Source of the DNA: a virus
UHGV virus genome: UHGV-1352852
Direction: 5' to 3' (one strand)
DNA length: 44,165 nucleotides
Shown here in pieces: positions 1 through 38,552 of the stretch. A program made the translations under genes and the position numbers. The notes under the pieces are model-generated. The model was not told the DNA's origin and did not search any database. It saw nothing but the letters and a program-made list of their open reading frames with translations. The number at the start of each line of letters is the position of its first letter. Position 1 is the first letter of the stretch.

Positions 1-1186
1 TGGCAAACGGTGATTTTTCTATTTGCATCGCGCACACTAATATACCACTAACCCCGTCACCGACAAATGAACCAACGGCGGAGTTGTTGTACACCCATGA
101 CGCTAAAAGCAGAGAAGACGCGCCACCCTGGCGTATAGCTACCGTTTCTGTAAATCGATACCAACCATTACCAAGCTCTGCTATATCGCTGCCGGGGGCG
201 CCTGCGTAAATAACCCCTGTCGATAAGTTAGCAACACAATCCGCGATAAACCCAGCATCATCAGCGGCGCGAAGTCTCGCATAATTATAACCATAGGCCT
301 TAGCAACGTAACTGAGAGTGTATACATCACCCTCCGCAAAAGCGGAAGACACCGATTGATATACGAGATGGCTGTCGTTTGTCTGGTTCGGGACTAGCGA
401 GAACGTACCACCGTTTAGAAATCCGTCAACTGCATCCGACACTGTTGCTCTAGTTTTAGTCCACGATGCGTCAGATAATTTCGACGATTTAATCAGGATA
501 TTACTGGACGCGGATTCCGGCGGAACACGTCCAACAGCAACCCCATCAATAAACGTAAGAGGCCATTCATTAGCGGCGGACTGCACAAGATTGCCGTTGC
601 GGTTGATGTAATAAACCTGCGGCCCGTCATACACAATGCGGCTATCAAGAGTCGACGCCAGAAGGTTAATAGGTGGATACCCGGCAGGCCCTTCATTGCT
701 CCAGATGCGCGGGAACGTCGTCACATAGTTAGCGTATATTTTCAGGAAACTACCCAGACAATCCCCGTAACAGCCGTACAAATCTGGCAGATTGTTAATC
801 AGGCACTGGTTCTCAAGGTCCTGGAACGGCGATTTCTCAGCGGTTGCCGTGAAAGTAATTGTCCAGTTAATCCCGTCTTCGGTGGACTCAGCGATGGTTG
901 ACGTGATTGTTACCTGGTAATCCTCGATACCCATGCCGAAGTCATGTGCCATCCAGAAACTTGACGCACCGCCATCGACTTTCTCAAGGAACGACAGAAA
1001 CGCCTGCCGCCCCATTGCGGATGTAATCAGGGTTACGCTCACCGGAAACACGTCGTAATATGTGTCACGGCCCTGACGCACTCCGCCACCAGCTAAATCT
1101 ACACTCCAGACGTTGTTACGTCTGGTCATTGAGTAGCCTTTTGACACAATGGGCTTAAGGCTACGCGGGAAATATAAGTCGCTCAT
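1..1186 (-). CDS. minor tail protein, 5' portion; ORF runs off the window start and continues in frame at the window end
   Basis: ATG at ~1184-1186 overlaps the tape-measure stop; manual reverse translation is stop-free down to position 1 (about 395 codons). Sits directly downstream of the tape measure in the tail module. Confidence 0.5.
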   Translation of the reverse strand, partial: MSDLYFPRSLKPIVSKGYSMTRRNNVWSVDLAGGGVRQGRDTYYDVFPVSVTLITSAMGRQAFLSFLEKVDGGASSFWMAHDFGMGIEDYQVTITSTIAESTEDGINWTITFTATAEKSPFQDLENQCLINNLPDLYGCYGDCLGSFLKIYANYVTTFPRIWSNEGPAGYPPINLLASTLDSRIVYDGPQVYYINRNGNLVQSAANEWPLTFIDGVAVGRVPPESASSNILIKSSKLSDASWTKTRATVSDAVDGFLNGGTFSLVPNQTNDSHLVYQSVSSAFAEGDVYTLSYVAKAYGYNYARLRAADDAGFIADCVANLSTGVIYAGAPGSDIAELGNGWYRFTETVAIRQGGASSLLLASWVYNNSAVGSFVGDGVSGILVCAMQIEKSPFA

Positions 1187-4269: not shown

Positions 4270-4376
4270 TCTTTAATCCTTTGGTTAAGAGGTTACTGGT
4301 TGATGGTGTTGCGCCAGACGGGAACCACCCGCTTTTCGTGTGCGACACTAGGCGCAAACTTATTCTAACACACTAC

Positions 4377-4405
4377 TTGCACACCCCAATATAATAGGGT
4401 ACTAT
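4377..4405 (+). promoter_or_regulatory. sigma70-like promoter TTGCAC-N17-TACTAT with embedded AATAG-N4-CTATT palindrome
   Basis: Member of a repeated promoter family (see findings); located ~30 nt upstream of the 4434 start codon. Confidence 0.5.
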
Positions 4406-4433
4406 TCACCTGTAACCTACTGAGGAAATAATT

Positions 4434-4760
4434 ATGCGTAAATTAGTATTAGCTCTGGGGTTTATGTCTTTTGCCGCTTTTGGGTCTCCGTGCGAACAGG
4501 TATTTAGTGAATCTGTTCTTATGACTTCTGGTGTTCTCGATAAAGCCGACCCTACTATTGTAAAGGCATTTAAGGACTCTACCGTTCGCGAGTGTGAGGC
4601 CGCTGTAGAGGTTGGTAAATCGGGCCTACCCCCGCAGGCCGTAACCTACACAGTGATACGTTCGGTAGAGAAAAACGGAGATGCTTTCTATAGCCTACTG
4701 ACAGCCACCCGTCTGCAAATGGTAATGACAGGGTGGGCGATAGGCGCAGAAAGTAAATAG
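4434..4760 (+). CDS. small secreted protein (Sec signal peptide), moron
   Basis: N-terminus MRKLVLALGFMSFAAFG is a typical signal peptide; GAGGA RBS; plus-strand gene inserted within the minus-strand tail module. Confidence 0.6.
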   Translation: MRKLVLALGFMSFAAFGSPCEQVFSESVLMTSGVLDKADPTIVKAFKDSTVRECEAAVEVGKSGLPPQAVTYTVIRSVEKNGDAFYSLLTATRLQMVMTGWAIGAESK

Positions 4761-4825
4761 TCGCCTTTATTTAAAGGAATGCACTGTGGTTAAATAGGAC
4801 AAATCCTAAACACGAGGAAGTAAGC

Positions 4826-5956
4826 ATGGCCCAGAAGAAAATAACCGACGAACAGTTACAGGAAGAATTGAACGCCGGGATGAAGATTATTGATATCGCC
4901 CGTAAATACGGCATCTCAGACCGCGTTATTCGTATCCGTAAAGCGAAGCTGGCTAAGAAAGGTGTAGGCCACGGGCGCGACGTTAGTCACCTTGTGCCGG
5001 ACGGCTACAAGATTAAAGGCACGTCGTCCCTGGTGGACGAGTTCGGCAACACTAAGTTGCAATGGGTTAAGACTGACACCGATGCTGAACGTCAGGTCGA
5101 GTTGATGAAAGCCGTAATTGAAGGCATGAAGTCAGAGATTACACCTGTTGCGCCTGTTAAAGCGACTCGCGCCAAACGCGACGATAAACTTCTCAATCTT
5201 TACACTGTGTCTGATTTCCATCTCGGTATGCTTGCATGGGCAGACGAGAGCGGCGACGACTGGGACATGAAGATTGCAGAAGACCTGTTCTCTCGATGGT
5301 TCGACGCGGCGTTTCAGAAAGCACCGGACGCGGGAACAGGAGTTATTAATCTGCTAGGAGACTTCGCGCACTTCGATAGTCTTGATGCCGTTACCCCTGA
5401 GTCGCGTCATGTGTTAGACGCCGATACTCGCTATCAGAAACTAGTTCGCTACATGATTCGTATGGTGCGTCGTGTTGTCGATATGGCGCTTGTTAAACAT
5501 CACACAGTCAAACTCTTAATAGTTCAAGGTAACCACGACCCTGTAGGCTCTGTATGGCTCGCCGAAATGTTCACGGTTTTATACTCAAACGACAGCCGAG
5601 TGATTGTCGATACGTCACCAGACGTTTACAAGATGGTGCAACACGGCAAAACGACGTTGTTCTTTCACCACGGGCATAAATCGCGCTTCGATGCTATCGA
5701 ACCGGTTATGATTGCCAAGTTCCGCAAAGCGTTCGGCGAGAGTGTTTACAGCTACGCCCACGTAGGCCATCTGCACCACCAGAAGATTGTAGAAAGCCGT
5801 AACATGGTTGTTGAGCAACACCGCACCTTAGCGGCTAAAGACGCCTACGCCTCCCGCGGCGGATGGATGTCGGGCCGCAGTGCTAATGTAATTACTTATA
5901 GCGCCGAATATGGTGAGGTCGCACGTTTAACTATTTCACCGGAGATGCTGGGATGA
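4826..5956 (+). CDS. HTH domain fused to a calcineurin-like metallophosphoesterase
   Basis: N-terminal HTH (IIDIARKYGISDRVIRIRKAKL); ordered metallophosphoesterase motifs DFH, GDFAHFD, GNHD, FHHGH, GHLHH; GAGGAAG RBS. Confidence 0.75.
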   Translation: MAQKKITDEQLQEELNAGMKIIDIARKYGISDRVIRIRKAKLAKKGVGHGRDVSHLVPDGYKIKGTSSLVDEFGNTKLQWVKTDTDAERQVELMKAVIEGMKSEITPVAPVKATRAKRDDKLLNLYTVSDFHLGMLAWADESGDDWDMKIAEDLFSRWFDAAFQKAPDAGTGVINLLGDFAHFDSLDAVTPESRHVLDADTRYQKLVRYMIRMVRRVVDMALVKHHTVKLLIVQGNHDPVGSVWLAEMFTVLYSNDSRVIVDTSPDVYKMVQHGKTTLFFHHGHKSRFDAIEPVMIAKFRKAFGESVYSYAHVGHLHHQKIVESRNMVVEQHRTLAAKDAYASRGGWMSGRSANVITYSAEYGEVARLTISPEMLG

Positions 5957-6183
5957 CTTCAAAATACAACCGAACAATGACAAACATTCACGGCAGCACT
6001 ATGACAGTAGACGTTTATGATGTTCTCCGTGCTTTCGATATCCGTGACCCGGCGCTACAGCACGCATTGAAGAAGCTGTTGTGTATGGGCCTGCGCGGTC
6101 ACAAGGATACCGGAACAGACTTAGCGGAAGCAATTGAAAGTCTGGAGAAGTTACGGGAATACCGAAGCAATATTGATGAGTAA
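5953..6183 (+). CDS. small helical phage protein (possibly DUF3310-like, from recollection)
   Basis: 76-aa ORF whose start overlaps the preceding stop (ATGA); segment VDVYDVLRAFDIRDPALQHALKKLLCMGLRG resembles small lambdoid-phage proteins. Confidence 0.45.
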   Translation: MTSKYNRTMTNIHGSTMTVDVYDVLRAFDIRDPALQHALKKLLCMGLRGHKDTGTDLAEAIESLEKLREYRSNIDE

Positions 6184-6210
6184 GAAAAGGCCCCTTTCGG
6201 GGCCTTAGTT
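6184..6210. terminator. bidirectional rho-independent terminator
   Basis: GC hairpin AGGCCCCTTTCGGGGCCT with A-run on one side and T-rich tract on the other; separates the plus-strand cassette from the convergent major tail gene. Confidence 0.6.
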
Positions 6211-13128: not shown

Positions 13129-13180
13129 TATTCTAACATTTACAATTCGGTGGAATAACTGGAATACGTAAATAAATAGT

Positions 13181-13209
13181 TTGCGCACACCAACATAACA
13201 GGGTACTAT
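13181..13209 (+). promoter_or_regulatory. sigma70-like promoter TTGCGC-N17-TACTAT with embedded palindrome
   Basis: Near-identical to the copies at 4377 and 16229; ~28 nt upstream of the 13237 start. Confidence 0.5.
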
Positions 13210-13236
13210 TCAGTTAATTTAAACAGGAGATGAAAA

Positions 13237-13758
13237 ATGGTTACTACAGTAATTACTTTCCCTGCGTATGTAGGGGCGAAAATATGCAGGGCTAAAAATG
13301 ATGTTCGCTACTATTTGAACGCTTTTTACATAGACCCTGAAGGATTGATAGTGTCTACGGACGGTCATAGATTGTTCTGCGACAATGTGAAGACCAACGT
13401 TGAGAAAGGGACTCTCATAGACATCAAAGGGAGAGAGCCTTCTAAATTTAACTACGCGGAGGTAAACCACGACAACGGCAGTGTATCTTTCTATGACGAT
13501 AATCGTGCGCTTATATGTACACTTCCGGTAGATGTTGTAGAAGGAAACTTTCCTGACTGGAGACGCGTGGCGCACATCACACCGGGTGTTGTCGATAGTA
13601 TAGGGTTCACCCTGCGTTATTTGGCAGACGCGTACAAGATTTCTAAGGCATACAAAAATGAAATTGCTCGTTTCGATTTCCAGGACCAAACCAGAGGATG
13701 TAAAATACTATTTTCAAACACGGCCTTTATGGTGTTAATGCCTGCGCGATTTAAATAA
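13237..13758 (+). CDS. beta sliding clamp (DnaN)-derived mini-protein
   Basis: Carries DnaN hallmark motifs in order: DVRYYLN, TDGHRL, GNFPDWRRV, IGFTLRYLADA and C-terminal FMVLMPARF (compare E. coli DnaN DVRYYLNG, TDGHRL, GRFPDYRRV, IGFNVSYVLDV, YVVMPMRL). AGGAGA RBS; terminator downstream. Confidence 0.7.
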   Translation: MVTTVITFPAYVGAKICRAKNDVRYYLNAFYIDPEGLIVSTDGHRLFCDNVKTNVEKGTLIDIKGREPSKFNYAEVNHDNGSVSFYDDNRALICTLPVDVVEGNFPDWRRVAHITPGVVDSIGFTLRYLADAYKISKAYKNEIARFDFQDQTRGCKILFSNTAFMVLMPARFK

Positions 13759-13761
13759 AAC

Positions 13762-13785
13762 TAGGGCCCCATACGGGGCCTTTTA
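13762..13785 (+). terminator. rho-independent terminator
   Basis: Hairpin GGGCCCCATACGGGGCC followed by TTTT, directly after the DnaN-like gene. Confidence 0.55.
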
Positions 13786-16184: not shown

Positions 16185-16228
16185 ATGCCCTCCTGTAGTA
16201 TCGCCAGTGTAACGCATAAAAATAATAT

Positions 16229-16257
16229 TTGCAGACACCAATATAATAGGGTACTAT
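16229..16257 (+). promoter_or_regulatory. sigma70-like promoter TTGCAG-N17-TACTAT with embedded palindrome
   Basis: Third near-identical copy; leader shares TATCGAAACGAGA with the copy at 26613. Confidence 0.5.
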
Positions 16258-16291
16258 TCAGCTATCGAAACGAGAGATAAGGGATTTAAAG

Positions 16292-16504
16292 ATGAAAGAA
16301 TTAATTATCGCGGTATTGACGACACTGGCAGTTTCACTGGTAATTGCTGCTGGTGTACGTAGCTTAGATAAACACGGGTGTGAGAACTACGGAGATGTCA
16401 CAGGCAGAGAGGTAATGTATAGTTACACAACTTGTTATGTGAAAACTGATAGAGGTTTTATCCCTCGTGAAGAACTTAATTTCAGAGCAGCGACACATGA
16501 ATAA
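16292..16504 (+). CDS. small membrane-anchored protein, moron
   Basis: 70 aa; N-terminal TM segment LIIAVLTTLAVSLVIAAGV then a short Cys-containing domain; AAGGGA RBS; terminator downstream. Confidence 0.5.
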   Translation: MKELIIAVLTTLAVSLVIAAGVRSLDKHGCENYGDVTGREVMYSYTTCYVKTDRGFIPREELNFRAATHE

Positions 16505-16505
16505 A

Positions 16506-16532
16506 ACTAAGGCCCCGAAAGGGGCCTTTTTC
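16506..16532. terminator. bidirectional rho-independent terminator
   Basis: Hairpin AGGCCCCGAAAGGGGCCT flanked by an A-run and TTTTT; lies between the convergent 16292 gene and the portal gene. Confidence 0.55.
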
Positions 16533-26142: not shown

Positions 26143-26385
26143 TTATTCACGGCAACCTCCCTCAGAGTCGTCGGCGCGAGCATCATGATTCGATGCCGTT
26201 GTGAATGAAGCTTTCAGTCCACCATCGAACACCCCGAATTCGTCGTCCCCGAACTGGTCAACTACCCATTCGCTTCCTGTTTCATCTATTACATAATCGT
26301 AATCAGGTGTTGAATAGCCGACATATGAACTTCCCGGCTTGAACTCAGCTAATTTACTTTTCACACAAATTAATTCTTCCATCAC
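26143..26385 (-). CDS. hypothetical acidic protein
   Basis: 80-aa track ORF. Confidence 0.4.
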   Translation of the reverse strand: MMEELICVKSKLAEFKPGSSYVGYSTPDYDYVIDETGSEWVVDQFGDDEFGVFDGGLKASFTTASNHDARADDSEGGCRE

Positions 26386-26579
26386 TTCGCCCCTTTGAAT
26401 TTAAAATTGTTGCCGATGAGTTCTAAATCGGATGGCTTGCGATACGCTATCCATGAACCTGTAACAGTTTTAACAGGCAAGAATCCTTTAAATTCAGATT
26501 CAATATTAATAGGCTCGCTGACAACCTGAACTAAAAGCCCTGTACCTATATCCCTAGCCAACTGACCCTTCTTAAACAT
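26382..26579 (-). CDS. hypothetical protein, first gene of the leftward early block
   Basis: 65-aa track ORF with AGGAG RBS and a family promoter directly upstream. Confidence 0.4.
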   Translation of the reverse strand: MFKKGQLARDIGTGLLVQVVSEPINIESEFKGFLPVKTVTGSWIAYRKPSDLELIGNNFKFKGAK

Positions 26580-26612
26580 AACCCCACTCCTCTGTCTCGT
26601 TTCGATAAGTGA

Positions 26613-26641
26613 ATAGTATCCTATTATGTTGGGGTGCGCAA
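26613..26641 (-). promoter_or_regulatory. sigma70-like promoter TTGCGC-N17-TACTAT (minus strand) with palindrome
   Basis: Minus-strand reading GCGCACCCCAACATAATAGGATACTATTCAC is near-identical to the plus-strand copies at 4377, 13181 and 16229. Confidence 0.5.
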
Positions 26642-27001
26642 GAGAATAGTTACGTTGCCGTTGTGATTCTTCGGGGAAGGTTGTGCCTTTATTCTTATTA
26701 CTTGGTAACTAAAGGGCAGGCCTTAAGGCCTGCCCAATAATCGTTACATTTTTACGGTTGCGAATCTACGGCATAGGAAGAAACAGTAGATATTTCAGCT
26801 GGTTACTTCTTTAAATGAGATTTAGATACACTTATCCTTAAACCCCAAGGCAAGCATCTCAGCTGTCTGGGAGGGGTTGACGAATCCCTCGGGGAGGGTT
26901 CGTCAACTCCGTAATACATACAAGTCCCAAAACCATTATACAAACATGAGTCAAGAACTTTCAATAACTTTTTTGTAAAGATTAAATATTGCAGGGATTG
27001 G

Positions 27002-27030
27002 TTGCTTTTACATTCCCGCTATCCTATACT
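27002..27030 (+). promoter_or_regulatory. sigma70 promoter TTGCTT-N17-TATACT for the rightward replication block
   Basis: Read directly; ~30 nt upstream of the 27063 start with AGGAGA RBS between. Confidence 0.4.
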
Positions 27031-27062
27031 CGGTTTCACTAAACAAACAGGAGATATAAAAA

Positions 27063-27245
27063 ATGCAGCATTACATGACACAGAATGAAGTCGCCGAACG
27101 TATCGGGGTAACACGTCAGACAATTAATAACTGGTTGCGCAGTGGTAAATTCCCGGATTGTTGTATTAAGGTTATGGGTCGCCGTTTACCCGGTACATTT
27201 GATCGAAATAAAGTTGAAGCGTGGATTAAGGAGAACGTGAAATGA
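27063..27245 (+). CDS. AlpA/excisionase-type HTH DNA-binding protein
   Basis: MTQNEVAERIGVTRQTINNWLRSGKFP is a typical AlpA/Xis-like HTH. Confidence 0.55.
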   Translation: MQHYMTQNEVAERIGVTRQTINNWLRSGKFPDCCIKVMGRRLPGTFDRNKVEAWIKENVK

Positions 27246-27532
27246 AAGGTGTAATTTTCCACAATAAAGCAGAAAACGAAGTGTATATGGTCCACACCGT
27301 GGCGGGAGAGTTCGCCTTATGTTTCAATATCTCTTGTCACCTTGATACCTACCGGCCTTTCTGCGTAGAAACAGAAATGAAGCTAATTAGCTTACGCCAA
27401 CTAAGCACCATGTCGGCATCGCTTAACGTAGGAGATAATATCGAGTATATCGACTTCTATTTCGGCGACGATTTGGTCGAGGAATATTTTGAAGAGTATA
27501 AAAATTTGCTGGAAGAGTTGGCTAAACGGTGA
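27242..27532 (+). CDS. hypothetical protein
   Basis: 96-aa track ORF with start/stop overlap to the previous gene. Confidence 0.4.
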   Translation: MKGVIFHNKAENEVYMVHTVAGEFALCFNISCHLDTYRPFCVETEMKLISLRQLSTMSASLNVGDNIEYIDFYFGDDLVEEYFEEYKNLLEELAKR

Positions 27533-27726
27533 AAAGAAACCCCAACGCCAGAACGTCGGGGTTAAAGTACAAATCATCAAAGTAAGCACAAGGATTATAC
27601 AATGACAAAGTTGATAGTTCCACAGCTACGCCGCCAGAAACACGGCGCTGATTTCTTCGCACCGGTAAAGATGAACCGCGCAATGCGCCGTATGCAGGAA
27701 GCCTTAGAACGTGCGGAGAAAAAGAA

Positions 27727-29946
27727 ATGAATATTGTTTTTGCAACGCTGCGTAACACATTCGATAAAAACCCTGTAGCGCGTGAAATGCCGCTGGAGCA
27801 GTTCGTAGAGTATGTCTGTGATACATCAAAGCGTTTGTCCGTGGACCCGTCATGGACTAAAGAAGAGTACGACGCTGCCAAGATTAAACAGAAAGCTATT
27901 GCGCCTGTTGGTGGCCGCCGTAAAAACGCTATTCTGGAAGACAGTGTGGTTAAGTTCGACTTCGACCATCTAAACCGTACTCAGTACCGCGACCTTACCC
28001 GCAAATTCAAGATCGCACCGTTCTTCAATATTCTGCACACAACGGCATCGCATCAACATGCGTGTAAAAACGGTGATTACGCCTTCCGCGTTCTCGTACC
28101 GGCTCGCACGCCGTTTAACTCTAACGACGCGTGGATGGTTCAACGGGCTATTTGTGCAGAGTTAGAAATAGACGAAGCATTGCGCGACCACTGCACGGAA
28201 GATGGCAACCGCCTCATCTACCTGCCACATAGAGAGTCGAAGATAACGGTTACAGAAGGGCGTGTTATCCGTGCCGAGCGGTACATCAAGAAAGCCGAAG
28301 AGATGGGGTTGCGTAAACGCGAAGCTAAGACACTTGCCGCCGATGAGCATGGGCTTAACGCAGATATAGCGCATTTCTGCGAAGCCGAGCTTGGCCTTGA
28401 CGTCTTATCTTCTGGTCGCGGGTACGAAGTGCCATGCCCTAACGAACATCTGCATACAGGCAAGGGCTCCACCAGCATCATGCTCGACGGTAAAGAAGTT
28501 CGCTTTGTCTGCCAGCATACAAACAACGGCGCTTGCACCGAGCTTAACCGTAGGCAGCATTTGGCCCTGCGTATGTGTGGCCTACCCGACGAGCTTAACG
28601 TAGATAAGCAACCTATCAGCATTAACAGCATTCGTGCGGCTCTACCTGATTTACCGGAAGAAGAGATTGAAGAACTACACCGCACAGAGAACGAGGATCC
28701 AGTAACTTGCAGCCTCGACGACCTGGAAGACGAGGGCTCAGAAGAGGACGAGCTACCGGAACCGGTAAAGGCTGATTTCGTCGTTGAGGGGTACATGCCG
28801 TCAGATTGCATATGGGATATTGTCGGTGAATCTGGTACGTACAAATCATTCTATACGCTGGGGATGATGTACCTGAGCGCCGCCGGATACCGGTTTGCAG
28901 GGGCGGATACCCAGCGTTGCCACCATTTCTATATCGATGGCGAAGGCGGTGCAGCTACACGTACACGTATTGATGCGCTAGCGGCTAAATATGGCGAGGA
29001 AGGTAAAGATTATGTACATGTTATCGATATGGGCGAAGTCGGAAAACTGAAAAGCCTGATTAAGTTAATGCGTGAAACTGCTGGCGATGAGCCAATTGGG
29101 GTGGTCGCGTTTGATACCCTTAACCAGACGCTAGCCCTGACGATTGATAAGTTCGACGAGAACAGTTCGTCCACGGCAATCGGTATGGGTAAAGTTATCG
29201 CCATCCTGAAAGAAGTACGTGATGCGACTAAAGCCGCGGTGGGCGTTGTCCACCATACGCCGAAGGGTGGAAAGAAAGCCCGTGGCAGCGGGGCACTGTA
29301 TGCAGGTGTCGACGTCGAGCTGACAATCGAACGCGCTACCGACCGCCAGATAAACGTATACCACTCGAAATTTAAGCACGGGCCTCAACAGAAAACCGTC
29401 GGCATGGTGCTTGAGTCTGTACAGTTCCGTGAAGCCCCGCCGCCGAAAGAATACCGTGCTGTTGAGTTCCTGGGTAGCACAGAAGAATACGGCACAATCG
29501 TAAACCTGGACCTTCCTGAGCCGCATAAGGCACTTGTGCTGATGCCGTGGGGCTTCGAGCCGTTCAAAACCGACGAGGAGAAAGAGCGCGAAGAAGGGCT
29601 GGCAAAGGAAGGTAAAGAAAACGTAAAGAATGCCGTAAAACGTGGGAAGGATGAAGTAAGGAAGGAGTCAATACTTTCGGCACTGGAAGACCTGCAACAG
29701 TCAGATGACACAGGTCGCGGTTTTACTCAGCAGCAGATAGTTGCCCGTTCCGGTGACTTTTCTGTGACTAACACCCATCTTGATAAAATGCTGAAAGATG
29801 GTGAACTAATGCTAGGCTGTGATGCTAATGGCGAAGTAGTACCGAGAACGTATCGTATACCTGAAAGAATAGGGGATAGACTAAGACCGAAGACAATATA
29901 CGAACCGAATGAAATGCTGGTAGTGACAGAAGAGGATTTGGAATAG
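27727..29946 (+). CDS. DNA primase/helicase (primase-like N-terminal domain + RecA-like AAA_25-type ATPase)
   Basis: Central Cys/His cluster (CPNEHLHTGKG...CQHTNNGAC), Walker A-like GESGTYKS, Walker B VVAFDTL, downstream HHTPKGG; 739 aa. Confidence 0.65.
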   Translation: MNIVFATLRNTFDKNPVAREMPLEQFVEYVCDTSKRLSVDPSWTKEEYDAAKIKQKAIAPVGGRRKNAILEDSVVKFDFDHLNRTQYRDLTRKFKIAPFFNILHTTASHQHACKNGDYAFRVLVPARTPFNSNDAWMVQRAICAELEIDEALRDHCTEDGNRLIYLPHRESKITVTEGRVIRAERYIKKAEEMGLRKREAKTLAADEHGLNADIAHFCEAELGLDVLSSGRGYEVPCPNEHLHTGKGSTSIMLDGKEVRFVCQHTNNGACTELNRRQHLALRMCGLPDELNVDKQPISINSIRAALPDLPEEEIEELHRTENEDPVTCSLDDLEDEGSEEDELPEPVKADFVVEGYMPSDCIWDIVGESGTYKSFYTLGMMYLSAAGYRFAGADTQRCHHFYIDGEGGAATRTRIDALAAKYGEEGKDYVHVIDMGEVGKLKSLIKLMRETAGDEPIGVVAFDTLNQTLALTIDKFDENSSSTAIGMGKVIAILKEVRDATKAAVGVVHHTPKGGKKARGSGALYAGVDVELTIERATDRQINVYHSKFKHGPQQKTVGMVLESVQFREAPPPKEYRAVEFLGSTEEYGTIVNLDLPEPHKALVLMPWGFEPFKTDEEKEREEGLAKEGKENVKNAVKRGKDEVRKESILSALEDLQQSDDTGRGFTQQQIVARSGDFSVTNTHLDKMLKDGELMLGCDANGEVVPRTYRIPERIGDRLRPKTIYEPNEMLVVTEEDLE

Positions 29947-29947
29947 G

Positions 29948-29976
29948 TAAAAAAGAAAGGGGCTTTAAGCCCCTTC
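29948..29976 (-). terminator. rho-independent terminator for the XRE regulator gene
   Basis: Minus-strand hairpin AAGGGGCTTAAAGCCCCTT followed by a T-rich run; the gene stop codon lies in the hairpin. Confidence 0.45.
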
Positions 29977-30180
29977 ACCGAACGCCAGCCACTTGGCGTC
30001 TACTTCCAGCACTTCCGCCAGTTTAAACAGCGTTGCCGGGCGGACGTCCTGAGTTACCCCAAGTGCCAGCTGGTTAATCGCGCCCTGTGAAACGCCAGCC
30101 AGGACAGCCAGACGGCGCTGGGAGATGCCGAGTTCTTTGCGGCGTTGTTCTACACGGATGCCTAGTTCAGAGGGTTGCAT
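29965..30180 (-). CDS. XRE-family (Cro/CI-type) HTH transcriptional regulator
   Basis: RRKELGISQRRLAVLAGVSQGAINQLALG is a classic XRE HTH; transcribed opposite to the surrounding replication genes; GGAG RBS. Confidence 0.7.
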   Translation of the reverse strand: MQPSELGIRVEQRRKELGISQRRLAVLAGVSQGAINQLALGVTQDVRPATLFKLAEVLEVDAKWLAFGEGA

Positions 30181-30210
30181 ATCAATTACTCCTTAGTTAG
30201 TTGATATGCG

Positions 30211-30273
30211 AATAGTACCATATTAATTATTTTAGAAAAACCCATTGACATGTGAATAGTTCGCTATTATAGT
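30211..30273. promoter_or_regulatory. operator/promoter region: two AATAG-N4-CTATT palindromes and TTGACA-N17-TATAGT promoter
   Basis: Palindromes at ~30211-30224 and ~30255-30268; plus-strand TTGACA (~30245) and TATAGT (~30268) bracket the second; lies between the divergent XRE gene and the 30305 gene. Confidence 0.5.
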
Positions 30274-33105: not shown

Positions 33106-33123
33106 TATCTGAATCAATTTAAC

Positions 33124-33150
33124 TAAGGCCCTTCATTGGGCCTTTTTACT
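33124..33150 (+). terminator. rho-independent terminator
   Basis: Hairpin AGGCCCTTCATTGGGCCT followed by TTTTT. Confidence 0.5.
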
Positions 33151-35336: not shown

Positions 35337-35414
35337 TAGATTTAGGAAATACGTTGTAGAAAATGTAAATACCGATATAATGGCTATGTCGGTATTTTTT
35401 TTTTGGAGTTATTA

Positions 35415-36110
35415 ATGAAAAAGTGTTCAAGATGCGGCGAAGATAAACCGGCGACTACAGAGTATTTTTCAAAGTCAACGCGCCTCGGGCTGCAACGCTG
35501 GTGTAAAGAGTGTGTAAATGCTAACAGGAAGGAAAAGTATGACGAAAAACTTAAATTACAAGGTAAATCCAGACGAGAAAGCCCTTGGTATGTTTTCACT
35601 GGGAAGCCTGTTAAATGCAGAAAGTGTGGGGAGGTAAAACCTTTAACAGAGGAAAACTTCAGGAAAGGAAATAAAAGTAATGGCTCTCATATCAGGAAAG
35701 ATTGCCGGGAGTGTCTCAACAAGCAACGCAGGGAACTGGTGAATAAGGACCAAAGGACGCGGGCGTACGCGCTTTTGTTAGGATACAAAAGAGCAGATTC
35801 AGGAAAAGGGCTTATCTGCGATTTAACACTGGAAAGCGTTATTAAACTAATATCACAGCCATGCCATTATTGCGGAAGCACTACAAAAGTCGGGGTAGAC
35901 CGCATAGATAATACAAGCGGGCACATAGTATCTAACTGCGTTTCTTGTTGTCAGACATGTAATCTTACCAGAGGACACCGGTTTACATTCATTGAAATGG
36001 TCACGGAGATAGGTCCCGCCATTAAAAGAATAAAAGCGGCGAGAGAAGTTTCACATATACCGTCTTTTCCTAATAGGTGGCCTGAAGGAGAATGTAGAGA
36101 TGCCAAGTAA
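35415..36110 (+). CDS. HNH homing endonuclease with N-terminal zinc-ribbon repeats
   Basis: Internal ATG of track ORF 35403..36110; repeated CxxC (CSRCG, CKEC, CRKCG, CREC) and HNH core CHYCG...VDRIDN...H...CVSCCQTCN; GGAG RBS. Confidence 0.7.
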   Translation: MKKCSRCGEDKPATTEYFSKSTRLGLQRWCKECVNANRKEKYDEKLKLQGKSRRESPWYVFTGKPVKCRKCGEVKPLTEENFRKGNKSNGSHIRKDCRECLNKQRRELVNKDQRTRAYALLLGYKRADSGKGLICDLTLESVIKLISQPCHYCGSTTKVGVDRIDNTSGHIVSNCVSCCQTCNLTRGHRFTFIEMVTEIGPAIKRIKAAREVSHIPSFPNRWPEGECRDAK

Positions 36111-38523: not shown

Positions 38524-38552
38524 GAGAAAAGGCCCCGTTTGGGGCCTTTTCA
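38524..38552. terminator. bidirectional rho-independent terminator
   Basis: Hairpin AGGCCCCGTTTGGGGCCT flanked by AAAA and TTTT; sits between the convergent replication block and the tailspike gene. Confidence 0.6.

Follow-up and report, generated by a model that had tools for sequence, protein, structure and literature searches.

The genome of the virus UHGV-1352852, a stretch of 44,165 nucleotides that is analysed here at its full length and called the window, raises the question of what role is played by the non-coding gap from which its genes diverge. In an initial annotation this gap had been marked as a 420-bp divergent region (26642-27062) that might be a candidate replication origin or a control hub. 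The map of open reading frames (ORFs), together with the full annotation of the related phage Bas71, describes the two-armed genome of a Kagunavirus-type coliphage (Guernseyvirinae) in which both arms diverge from a single point. The divergence therefore stands, but the left edge does not: from start codon to start codon the gap covers 26580-27062 (483 bp), and the earlier boundary at 26642 had excluded one further promoter (26641..26613). The features listed within it, namely a GC hairpin (~26707-26735), an imperfect ~17-bp inverted repeat (~26870-26915), AT-rich tracts and a rightward TTGCTT-N17-TATACT promoter, were all found in place, at slightly corrected coordinates. With regard to function, the control hub is upheld by three promoter-like sites and a terminator that are kept across non-homologous cassettes at the single point of divergence, but the origin is unsupported. 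We propose that the gap is probably a master divergent transcription-control region which contains a leftward non-coding unit running from a promoter to a terminator (Table 1). What is new in this proposal is the leftward non-coding unit, together with its evolution as a cassette; predictions of the promoters and of the terminator were already present in the annotation of the related phage fBC-Eco01.

A predicted leftward promoter-to-terminator unit

It seems that two host-type promoters placed back-to-back organize the gap. The leftward sigma-70-type promoter would start a transcript near 26928, and this transcript would form the 17-bp stem-loop of the inverted repeat first, beginning 18 nt into the RNA, run on for ~135 nt and then stop, ~220 nt from its start, at the terminator 26735..26707. 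After the tail of the terminator, which ends at ~26707, another ~65 nt lead to a second leftward promoter of a palindromic type (26641..26613), followed by a Shine-Dalgarno sequence and by the ATG at 26579 of the 65-amino-acid gene that opens the leftward arm; this second promoter would serve that gene. The terminator probably insulates the regulated palindromic promoter from the strong constitutive one. In the other direction, the rightward sigma-70-type promoter (27002-27030) would drive the early gene of a MerR/Xis-like helix-turn-helix (HTH) protein. The analysis demonstrates the signals as sequences, their excess over chance, their conservation with compensatory changes from cassette to cassette and the absence of a conserved ORF; that the promoters fire, and that RNA polymerase stops at the terminator, in vivo, we infer. 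The product of this self-contained promoter-to-terminator unit is most likely a discrete, structured early RNA.

Table 1. Features of the gap and of its flanks, in window coordinates (minus strand, leftward; plus strand, rightward)
Feature	Position	Strand	Details
Leftward sigma-70-type promoter	26935..26964	minus	TTGAAA 26964..26959, 18-nt spacer, TATAAT 26940..26935; predicted start ~26928
Imperfect inverted repeat	26873..26910	minus	17-bp stem, GGG loop, one bulged T, one G.T pair; repeat finder
Predicted non-coding leftward transcript, ~220 nt	26707..26928	minus	Inferred from promoter and terminator positions
Predicted intrinsic terminator	26707..26735	minus	Hairpin 26735..26714 (9-bp stem, 8 G-C; TTAA loop), then TTTAGTT 26713..26707; terminator scan, repeat finder
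Conserved non-coding module	26679..26773	minus	Terminator hairpin with ~38 nt upstream and ~35 nt downstream (leftward sense)
Type-1 cassette, variable middle of the gap	26799..26997		Inverted repeat and leftward sigma-70 promoter
Most AT-rich 80 nt of the 44-kb sequence	26911..26990		25% GC; takes in the leftward promoter and the stretch that separates it from its divergent partner
Rightward promoter of the HTH gene	27002..27030	plus	TTGCTT 27002-27007, 17-nt spacer, TATACT 27025-27030; ~60 nt before ATG 27063
MerR/excisionase-type winged-helix DNA-binding protein, 60 amino acids, first rightward gene	27063..27245	plus	Pfam HTH_17 E = 1.6e-8; PHROG 66
Repeated-type leftward promoter	26613..26641	minus	-35 TTGCGC 26641..26636, 17-nt spacer, -10 TACTAT 26618..26613; overlaps palindrome AATAGTATCCTATT 26612-26625
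First gene of the leftward arm, 65 amino acids, function unassigned	26382..26579	minus	ATG ORF, GAGGAG upstream; PHROG 12538 E = 1.4e-11

The leftward promoter was absent from the initial annotation. It matches the sigma-70 consensus at 11 of 12 positions, a score that is reached by only four sites in the whole 44 kb, and it is invariant in the 13 sequences that carry the same version of the gap middle as the window (type 1). The computational annotation of fBC-Eco01 independently puts a host promoter ('host promoter3'), a terminator and a 'phage promoter' ('phage promoter6') at the same three places, that is, at the equivalents of the leftward promoter, the GC hairpin and the 26613-26641 element.

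The GC hairpin, GGGCAGGCC-TTAA-GGCCTGCCC at 26714-26735, had been noticed before but its character as a predicted leftward intrinsic terminator was overlooked. In a context of 51 nt it folds with -24.5 kcal/mol in the minus and -23.2 kcal/mol in the plus sense (z = -4.7 and -4.3), and none of 200 dinucleotide shuffles was equally stable. The T-rich tail (5 T in 7 nt) is confined to the minus strand and invariant, the plus strand continuing after the hairpin with AATAATCG. Across 15 distinct sequences 99.2% of the cells of the stem alignment are paired; one pair is CG in 11 and UA in 4 of them, and none of 500 shuffles reached the observed covariation score, the double change itself being probably a single evolutionary event. 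Moreover, 335 phage records, 266 of them from Salmonella and 58 from Escherichia, contain the module around the terminator (26679-26773) at 89-100% identity, and hardly any of them annotates it; it is kept in cassette types 1, 4 and 5 despite helicases that are only ~53% identical. The Salmonella jerseyvirus records NC_073180.1 (templet), NC_073202.1 (celemicas) and NC_073201.1 (dunkel) start within ~50 nt of each other, in or beside this module (~26750-26800), which reflects either a convention of re-orientation or a hint of a physical end nearby.

The inverted repeat, with arms at 26873-26890 and 26894-26910, folds with -27.9 kcal/mol in the plus and -24.0 kcal/mol in the minus sense (z = -3.95 and -5.58), again with none of 200 dinucleotide shuffles equally stable. 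Its wobble position is a G-C pair in the related locus L002 and an A-T pair in L056. The whole 224-nt interval from promoter to terminator folds with -80.4 kcal/mol (z = -5.48).

Cassette exchange among related phages

The region matches 449 phage records, mainly of Escherichia kagunaviruses and Salmonella jerseyviruses (subfamily Guernseyvirinae), with vB_Ec_DUEC01 (93.5%), fBC-Eco01 and the BASEL phages Bas70-76 as the closest. The comparison set was made up of 47 IMG/VR loci retrieved via the primase-helicase and of 12 GenBank stretches, and the promoter pair was counted over 45 loci. Among these relatives the gap is a mosaic. The 92 nt beside the leftward gene (26580-26671) are conserved almost everywhere, at 94-99% in nearly all relatives and including the block AGTTACGTTGCCGTTGTG at 26650-26667, and many loci also conserve a stretch of 65 nt with the rightward promoter; the middle occurs in at least seven unrelated versions. 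The type-1 version of the window was found in only 21 GenBank kagunaviruses (95.7-98.1% identity) and in loci L001-L003, and other relatives have unrelated sequence in its place. Type-1 phages include Bas71, fBC-Eco01 and K1B4 (locus L059; OQ696342.1, 19058-19868).

The divergent promoter pair is nevertheless present in 43 of the 45 loci. Its leftward partner exists in four versions, which are not identical and whose spacers have diverged (TTGAAA-18-TATAAT; TTGACT-17-TAAGCT; TTGACA-17-TAAGGT or TAAGTT; TTGACA-16-TAAAAT), and its rightward partner has the form TTGNNT-17-TATA(C/G)T. More precisely, a -35 element TTG(C/A/T)(T/G)T and a -10 element TATA(C/G)T at 17-nt spacing, ~60 nt from the ATG, recur in 43/45 loci with differing spacer sequence, so that the rightward promoter named in the initial annotation is conserved across relatives. 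It lies 200 nt before the HTH ATG in locus L014; both there and in L019 an extra gene separates it from the HTH gene, which places the promoter ~200 nt or more ahead of the HTH start codon.

Identity of the HTH protein is 80-100% across nearly all related loci and ~70% in two, and only close homologues were found. The structural model of the protein (predicted local distance difference test score 81.7) gave BldC, the MerR DNA-binding domain, RacA and the Xis/RdfS excisionases as best fold matches. In phage K1B4 the HTH gene is one of four early genes according to RNA sequencing reported at the level of gene classes (PMC12645636), which fits the rightward promoter as an early host-type promoter lacking the palindrome described below.

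At the place where the window has its inverted repeat, the other cassettes have different compound hairpins. An RNAalifold consensus of 18 type-4 and type-5 sequences contains an outer stem with pairs that vary between AU, GC and GU and between GC and AU, and a flanking helix with CG and UA variants. In types 2, 3 and 7 a GC hairpin is present 45-60 nt upstream of the palindromic promoter; by inspection, it sits inside an outer helix, and TTTT comes directly after this helix. A variable (GAGT)n microsatellite of 3 to 6 or more units accompanies the GC hairpin in L012, L022 and other type-2 cassettes (~26740-26760). The hexamer AGTTAC is the most enriched 6-mer across eight cassette types (25 observed, 3.5 expected from the genome background). 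A protein-binding motif or iteron AGTTAC/AAGTTAC was considered and rejected, as AAGTTAC shows no enrichment genome-wide (5 against 6.06 expected), and in the predicted folds the copies are best explained largely as complementary helix arms, for instance GUAAC...GUUAC around the terminator.

A second kind of exchange was seen in the primase-helicase. Its N-terminal ~340 residues (window 27727-28750) occur in two unrelated versions among loci L003-L049, MNIVFATL... and MSDVILSYSW.../MSTGNLAYSW..., each fused to one and the same AAA_25 helicase half; this indicates that N-terminal domains are swapped among close relatives.

Neither a host nor a plasmid source for the gap sequence was found: it had no match in 5,426 Escherichia coli genomes, and the sole PLSDB match is a 44-kb record sharing part of the phage sequence. 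That record, CP088689.1 (44,086 bp, a 'non-mobilizable plasmid' of an E. coli blood isolate), has 95.8% identity to parts (23%) of the gap, including its annotated helix-turn-helix gene, and in length it equals a kagunavirus genome. The record may represent a phage co-assembled with its host, through a carrier state or contamination.

Several observations weigh against a divergent control region with a leftward non-coding RNA. The promoter and terminator calls are consensus matches, and scans of this kind yield about as many sites in shuffled sequence. The pattern for the promoter pair, with TTGA(C/A)N-16..18-TA..NT on the leftward side, was designed post hoc from the alignments, and its chance of ~0.01 per locus is our own estimate; in most of the other cassettes the leftward -10 element is weak (TAAGNT, 3/6). 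The U-tract of the terminator is short and interrupted (UUUAGUU), so termination efficiency may be partial. As the type-1 sequences are 96-98% identical, they allow almost no covariation test of the inverted repeat itself. The folding energies show no leftward preference, with RNAalifold values of -36.9 and -37.5 for the two senses and the repeat of the window being the more stable in the plus sense. An assignment of the strand by G.U asymmetry was tried and abandoned, since neither the alifold nor the single-sequence energies separate the senses, and the strand is thus given only by the orientation of promoter and terminator. With respect to RNA function, the covariance models of Rfam 15 found nothing in the gap at or above the gathering threshold, the best match being sbrA on the terminator (24.3 bits, with the threshold at 45). 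The leftward RNA as an antisense regulator of the HTH gene, an idea prompted by a 14/16 match between 26778-26793 and the HTH ribosome-binding site, was also rejected: RNAduplex pairings of the leftward RNA with the HTH 5' region at 13 loci were no better than those of shuffles (z from -2.5 to +1.7, mostly near 0).

Rival accounts of the gap

The T7 primary origin consists of promoters followed by an AT-rich stretch, and it has been necessary to ask whether the gap is, or includes, an origin of replication, either as a T7-like promoter with AT-rich sequence for priming or opening, or as a site for the primase-helicase at which the hairpins act as loading or priming signals. We consider this unlikely. 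As in T7, strong promoters adjoin the AT-richest segment, the replication module is T7-like and iterons are lacking. The AT-rich tracts of the initial annotation proved to include the lowest-GC 80-nt window of the whole genome, located between the divergent promoters, and this design of promoters with AT-rich sequence is common to all cassettes. The gap also lies ~650 bp upstream of the primase-helicase gene (27727), at the head of the T7-like module with a Gp2.5-like single-stranded DNA-binding protein (SSB), a family-A polymerase and an exonuclease, and the genome offers no better origin candidate elsewhere, such as an iteron array. In contrast to T7, however, the promoters here are host-type and divergent, and the AT-rich stretch is the promoter region itself instead of lying downstream of it. 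Promoters and AT-rich minimum coincide, an ordinary strong promoter region would look equally so, and the other AT-rich minima of the genome are likewise found at promoters. The GC-skew check put forward in the initial annotation did give a cumulative minimum near 27000, but it turns exactly where gene orientation turns and is therefore not independent evidence for an origin. Neither the gap nor the genome contains iterons or tandem arrays of three or more copies, the only tandem being a 10-bp unit repeated 2.1 times at 26951-26971 (TCAAGAACTT x2) within the AT-rich segment. Four DnaA boxes (TTWTNCACA) were found genome-wide, none of them in the gap, the nearest at 27255 and without clustering, and there is no consensus site for integration host factor; the gap has no similarity to PLSDB plasmid origins. 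The inverted-repeat cassette is swapped among near relatives, and cassette type is uncoupled from that of the primase-helicase N-terminus: type 2 occurs with both N-terminal versions, and the MNIVF version of the window occurs with cassettes 1, 2 and 3. A site specific to the primase-helicase should co-vary with it or be conserved, and since this cassette does neither, the finding argues against a classical origin; a T7-style origin made up only of promoters and AT-rich DNA would be compatible with these results. We found no experimental origin mapping or transcript maps for Guernseyvirinae phages in the literature searched.

The remaining accounts concern what the leftward signals do. In lambda PR'-6S RNA-tR' and in Pseudomonas aeruginosa alpB, a leader and terminator act as a gate, and processive antitermination of the Q and AlpA types has been described for such systems (PMC7969949, PMC9371919). 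By analogy, a phage factor or partial read-through would carry polymerase past 26707-26735 into the ~30-kb leftward arm and past its internal terminators. The layout is that of a gate: as at lambda PR' and PalpB-tB, there is a strong constitutive promoter, a non-coding leader of ~200 nt (~220 nt here), an intrinsic terminator and a long co-directional arm with lysis and virion genes and further terminators. Still, we regard a gate as a rather improbable reading. The PHROG-based annotation of Bas71 lists no antiterminator, although its many small unassigned proteins were not individually examined, and no Q-like or AlpA-like protein was found. The HTH protein was rejected as an AlpA-like antiterminator, being a bare winged helix of 60 amino acids of the MerR/BldC/Xis kind with neither AlpA nor Q among its PDB sequence or fold matches (the fold search gave BldC, MerR and Xis), whereas P. 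aeruginosa AlpA is far larger and 21Q-like, being built of eight helices with contact residues as far along as position 142 (PMC9371919). By inspection, no convincing -10-like pause element with both A2 and T6 is present in the first 25 nt; the initially transcribed region GGGACTTGTATGTATTACGG contains partial matches only (TATTAC, TATGTA). Moreover, in contrast to lambda and PalpB, a conserved promoter directly past the terminator is available to the first leftward gene, so read-through is unnecessary for it. The inverted repeat could alternatively be an operator in double-stranded DNA, with two half-sites, TTGACGAA and TTCGTCAA, spaced by about two helical turns, at which a dimeric regulator would block or tune the leftward promoter from +18 to +55. 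The core of the repeat is indeed a perfect 9-bp palindrome pair (GTTGACGAA / TTCGTCAAC), it lies just downstream of a strong promoter, and an early DNA-binding protein is encoded alongside. This is nonetheless very unlikely: neither half-site has a further copy in the genome, and the HTH protein is well conserved in nearly all relatives, yet the sequence of the repeat is cassette-specific and unrelated between cassettes. It is the pairing that is conserved and not the sequence, as the wobble variants restore Watson-Crick pairs and the other cassettes covary. The notion that the gap codes for small proteins (a 33-amino-acid plus-strand ORF at 26877-26978, a 43-amino-acid ORF at 26609-26740 or a 38-amino-acid minus-strand ORF from the ATG at 26919) draws on gene callers, which annotated coding sequences of 30-59 amino acids in the gap of Bas70-76 and DUEC01. 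Other annotators call none there, the small ORFs have TTG/GTG starts or no Shine-Dalgarno sequence, and the 43-amino-acid ORF passes through the terminator hairpin. In Bas72 an insertion of 2 nt puts both ORFs that span the repeat out of frame, and the annotated coding sequence goes from 33 to 30 amino acids; the type-4 and type-5 cassettes have no ORF in common. We hold this account to be extremely improbable.

We therefore return to a divergent control region with a leftward non-coding unit as the preferred reading. Lambda OOP, P22 sar and the phi29 pRNA are small phage RNAs that each run from a promoter to a terminator of their own, and the unit described here resembles them in being compact, non-coding and strongly structured, in its place in an early or control region and in its conserved 3' terminator module. 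It differs from them in that it does not overlap a gene in antisense, has neither a supported target nor an Rfam family, and has a 5' half that is hypervariable between relatives; it is also longer than OOP or sar. The gap likewise resembles the divergent early promoter regions of virulent and temperate coliphages, where back-to-back sigma-70-type promoters lie in the AT-richest part of the genome beside a small early DNA-binding gene, and their promoter-terminator-promoter insulation, where an intrinsic terminator stands just before a further promoter. Here, in contrast to those regions, one of the divergent promoters feeds only a non-coding unit of ~220 nt that is swapped as a cassette while the positions of the signals are kept. 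A bolder extension is that the leftward unit represents a family of early non-coding RNAs throughout the Guernseyvirinae, with a fixed 3' module (38 nt plus terminator), a 5' stem-loop swapped wholesale with its pairing kept, and diversifying selection acting on the RNA; we would give this only a slim chance. A diversifying RNA of this type would fit a role such as a decoy or specificity element in conflicts between phage and host or between phages, as opposed to a passive leader.

Signals along the two arms and their bearing on the family

The rightward arm comprises 12 kb with the genes for the HTH protein, primase-helicase, exonuclease, Gp2.5-like SSB, family-A polymerase, resolvase, methylase and helicase. 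The leftward arm, ~30 kb, contains some 25 small genes, holins, endolysin, terminase, head genes, tail genes and tailspike; homologues of its first gene, that of 65 amino acids, are present at the equivalent position in most related loci.

The palindromic promoter in front of this gene belongs to a repeated type. About 47 nt of the 26613-26641 element recur at 4356-4412, 13160-13216 and 16208-16264, and the palindrome AATAG-N4-CTATT was matched 15 times genome-wide against 1.05 expected, its starts including 4393, 13197, 16245, 25188, 25511, 26612, 30255, 32407 and 36726. It overlaps the -10 element or the spacer in two promoter families, TTGCRC-17-TACTAT and TTGACA-17-TATAGT, the latter at 30245, 32397 and 36716; the two host-type promoters of the gap are devoid of it. 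On these grounds AATAG-N4-CTATT looks like an operator for a dimeric regulator common to perhaps nine middle-type promoters. The corresponding motif of fBC-Eco01 has been published as tgAATAGTa-ccTATTat-T and was ascribed to a phage RNA polymerase (PMC9825357); no phage RNA polymerase is annotated in the Bas71 record.

Further signals were noted along both arms. Near-identical terminator hairpins of the form AAGGCCCC-N4-GGGGCCTT(TT) occur in both orientations at 6183-6206, 13759-13782, 16505-16528, 33121-33146 and 38525-38548. Three rightward single-gene islands within the leftward arm (~4356-6200, 13160-13785 and 16208-16531) each extend from a promoter of the palindromic type to one of these hairpins. 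Conversely, the rightward arm contains a second leftward unit at 29956-30256, composed of a promoter TTCACA-16-TAAAAT (30256..30229), a 71-amino-acid ORF (30180..29965) and a terminator (29976..29956), back-to-back with a rightward promoter at 30245-30273; unlike the leftward unit of the gap, it appears to be coding. The hairpin AACCCCAACGCC...GGCGTTGGGGTT at 27538-27563, between the rightward genes of 96 and 42 amino acids, has a T-rich tail on the minus strand only and reads as a leftward-facing terminator in the rightward arm, which the fBC-Eco01 annotation gives as bidirectional. Directly after the polymerase gene lies a perfect hairpin of 13 bp with a run of nine T behind it (35367-35397). 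It falls within 35341-35420, which ranks second in the genome for AT-richness, and is a candidate for a very strong terminator of rightward transcription midway along the replication arm.

Among the phages considered for therapy and biocontrol, kagunaviruses and jerseyviruses are common candidates, and they are also attractive as small engineering chassis. The anatomy of the gap distinguishes what is constant, namely the promoter pair, the terminator and the palindromic promoter family, from the middle cassette, which is exchangeable. For engineering, this points to a stretch of roughly 200 bp that could probably be replaced, and it indicates which signals have to stay. If the gap were an origin after all, it would be a promoter-dependent origin in the style of T7 that is used with the host RNA polymerase. 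The leftward RNA, if functional, would add a widespread family to the small RNAs of phages.

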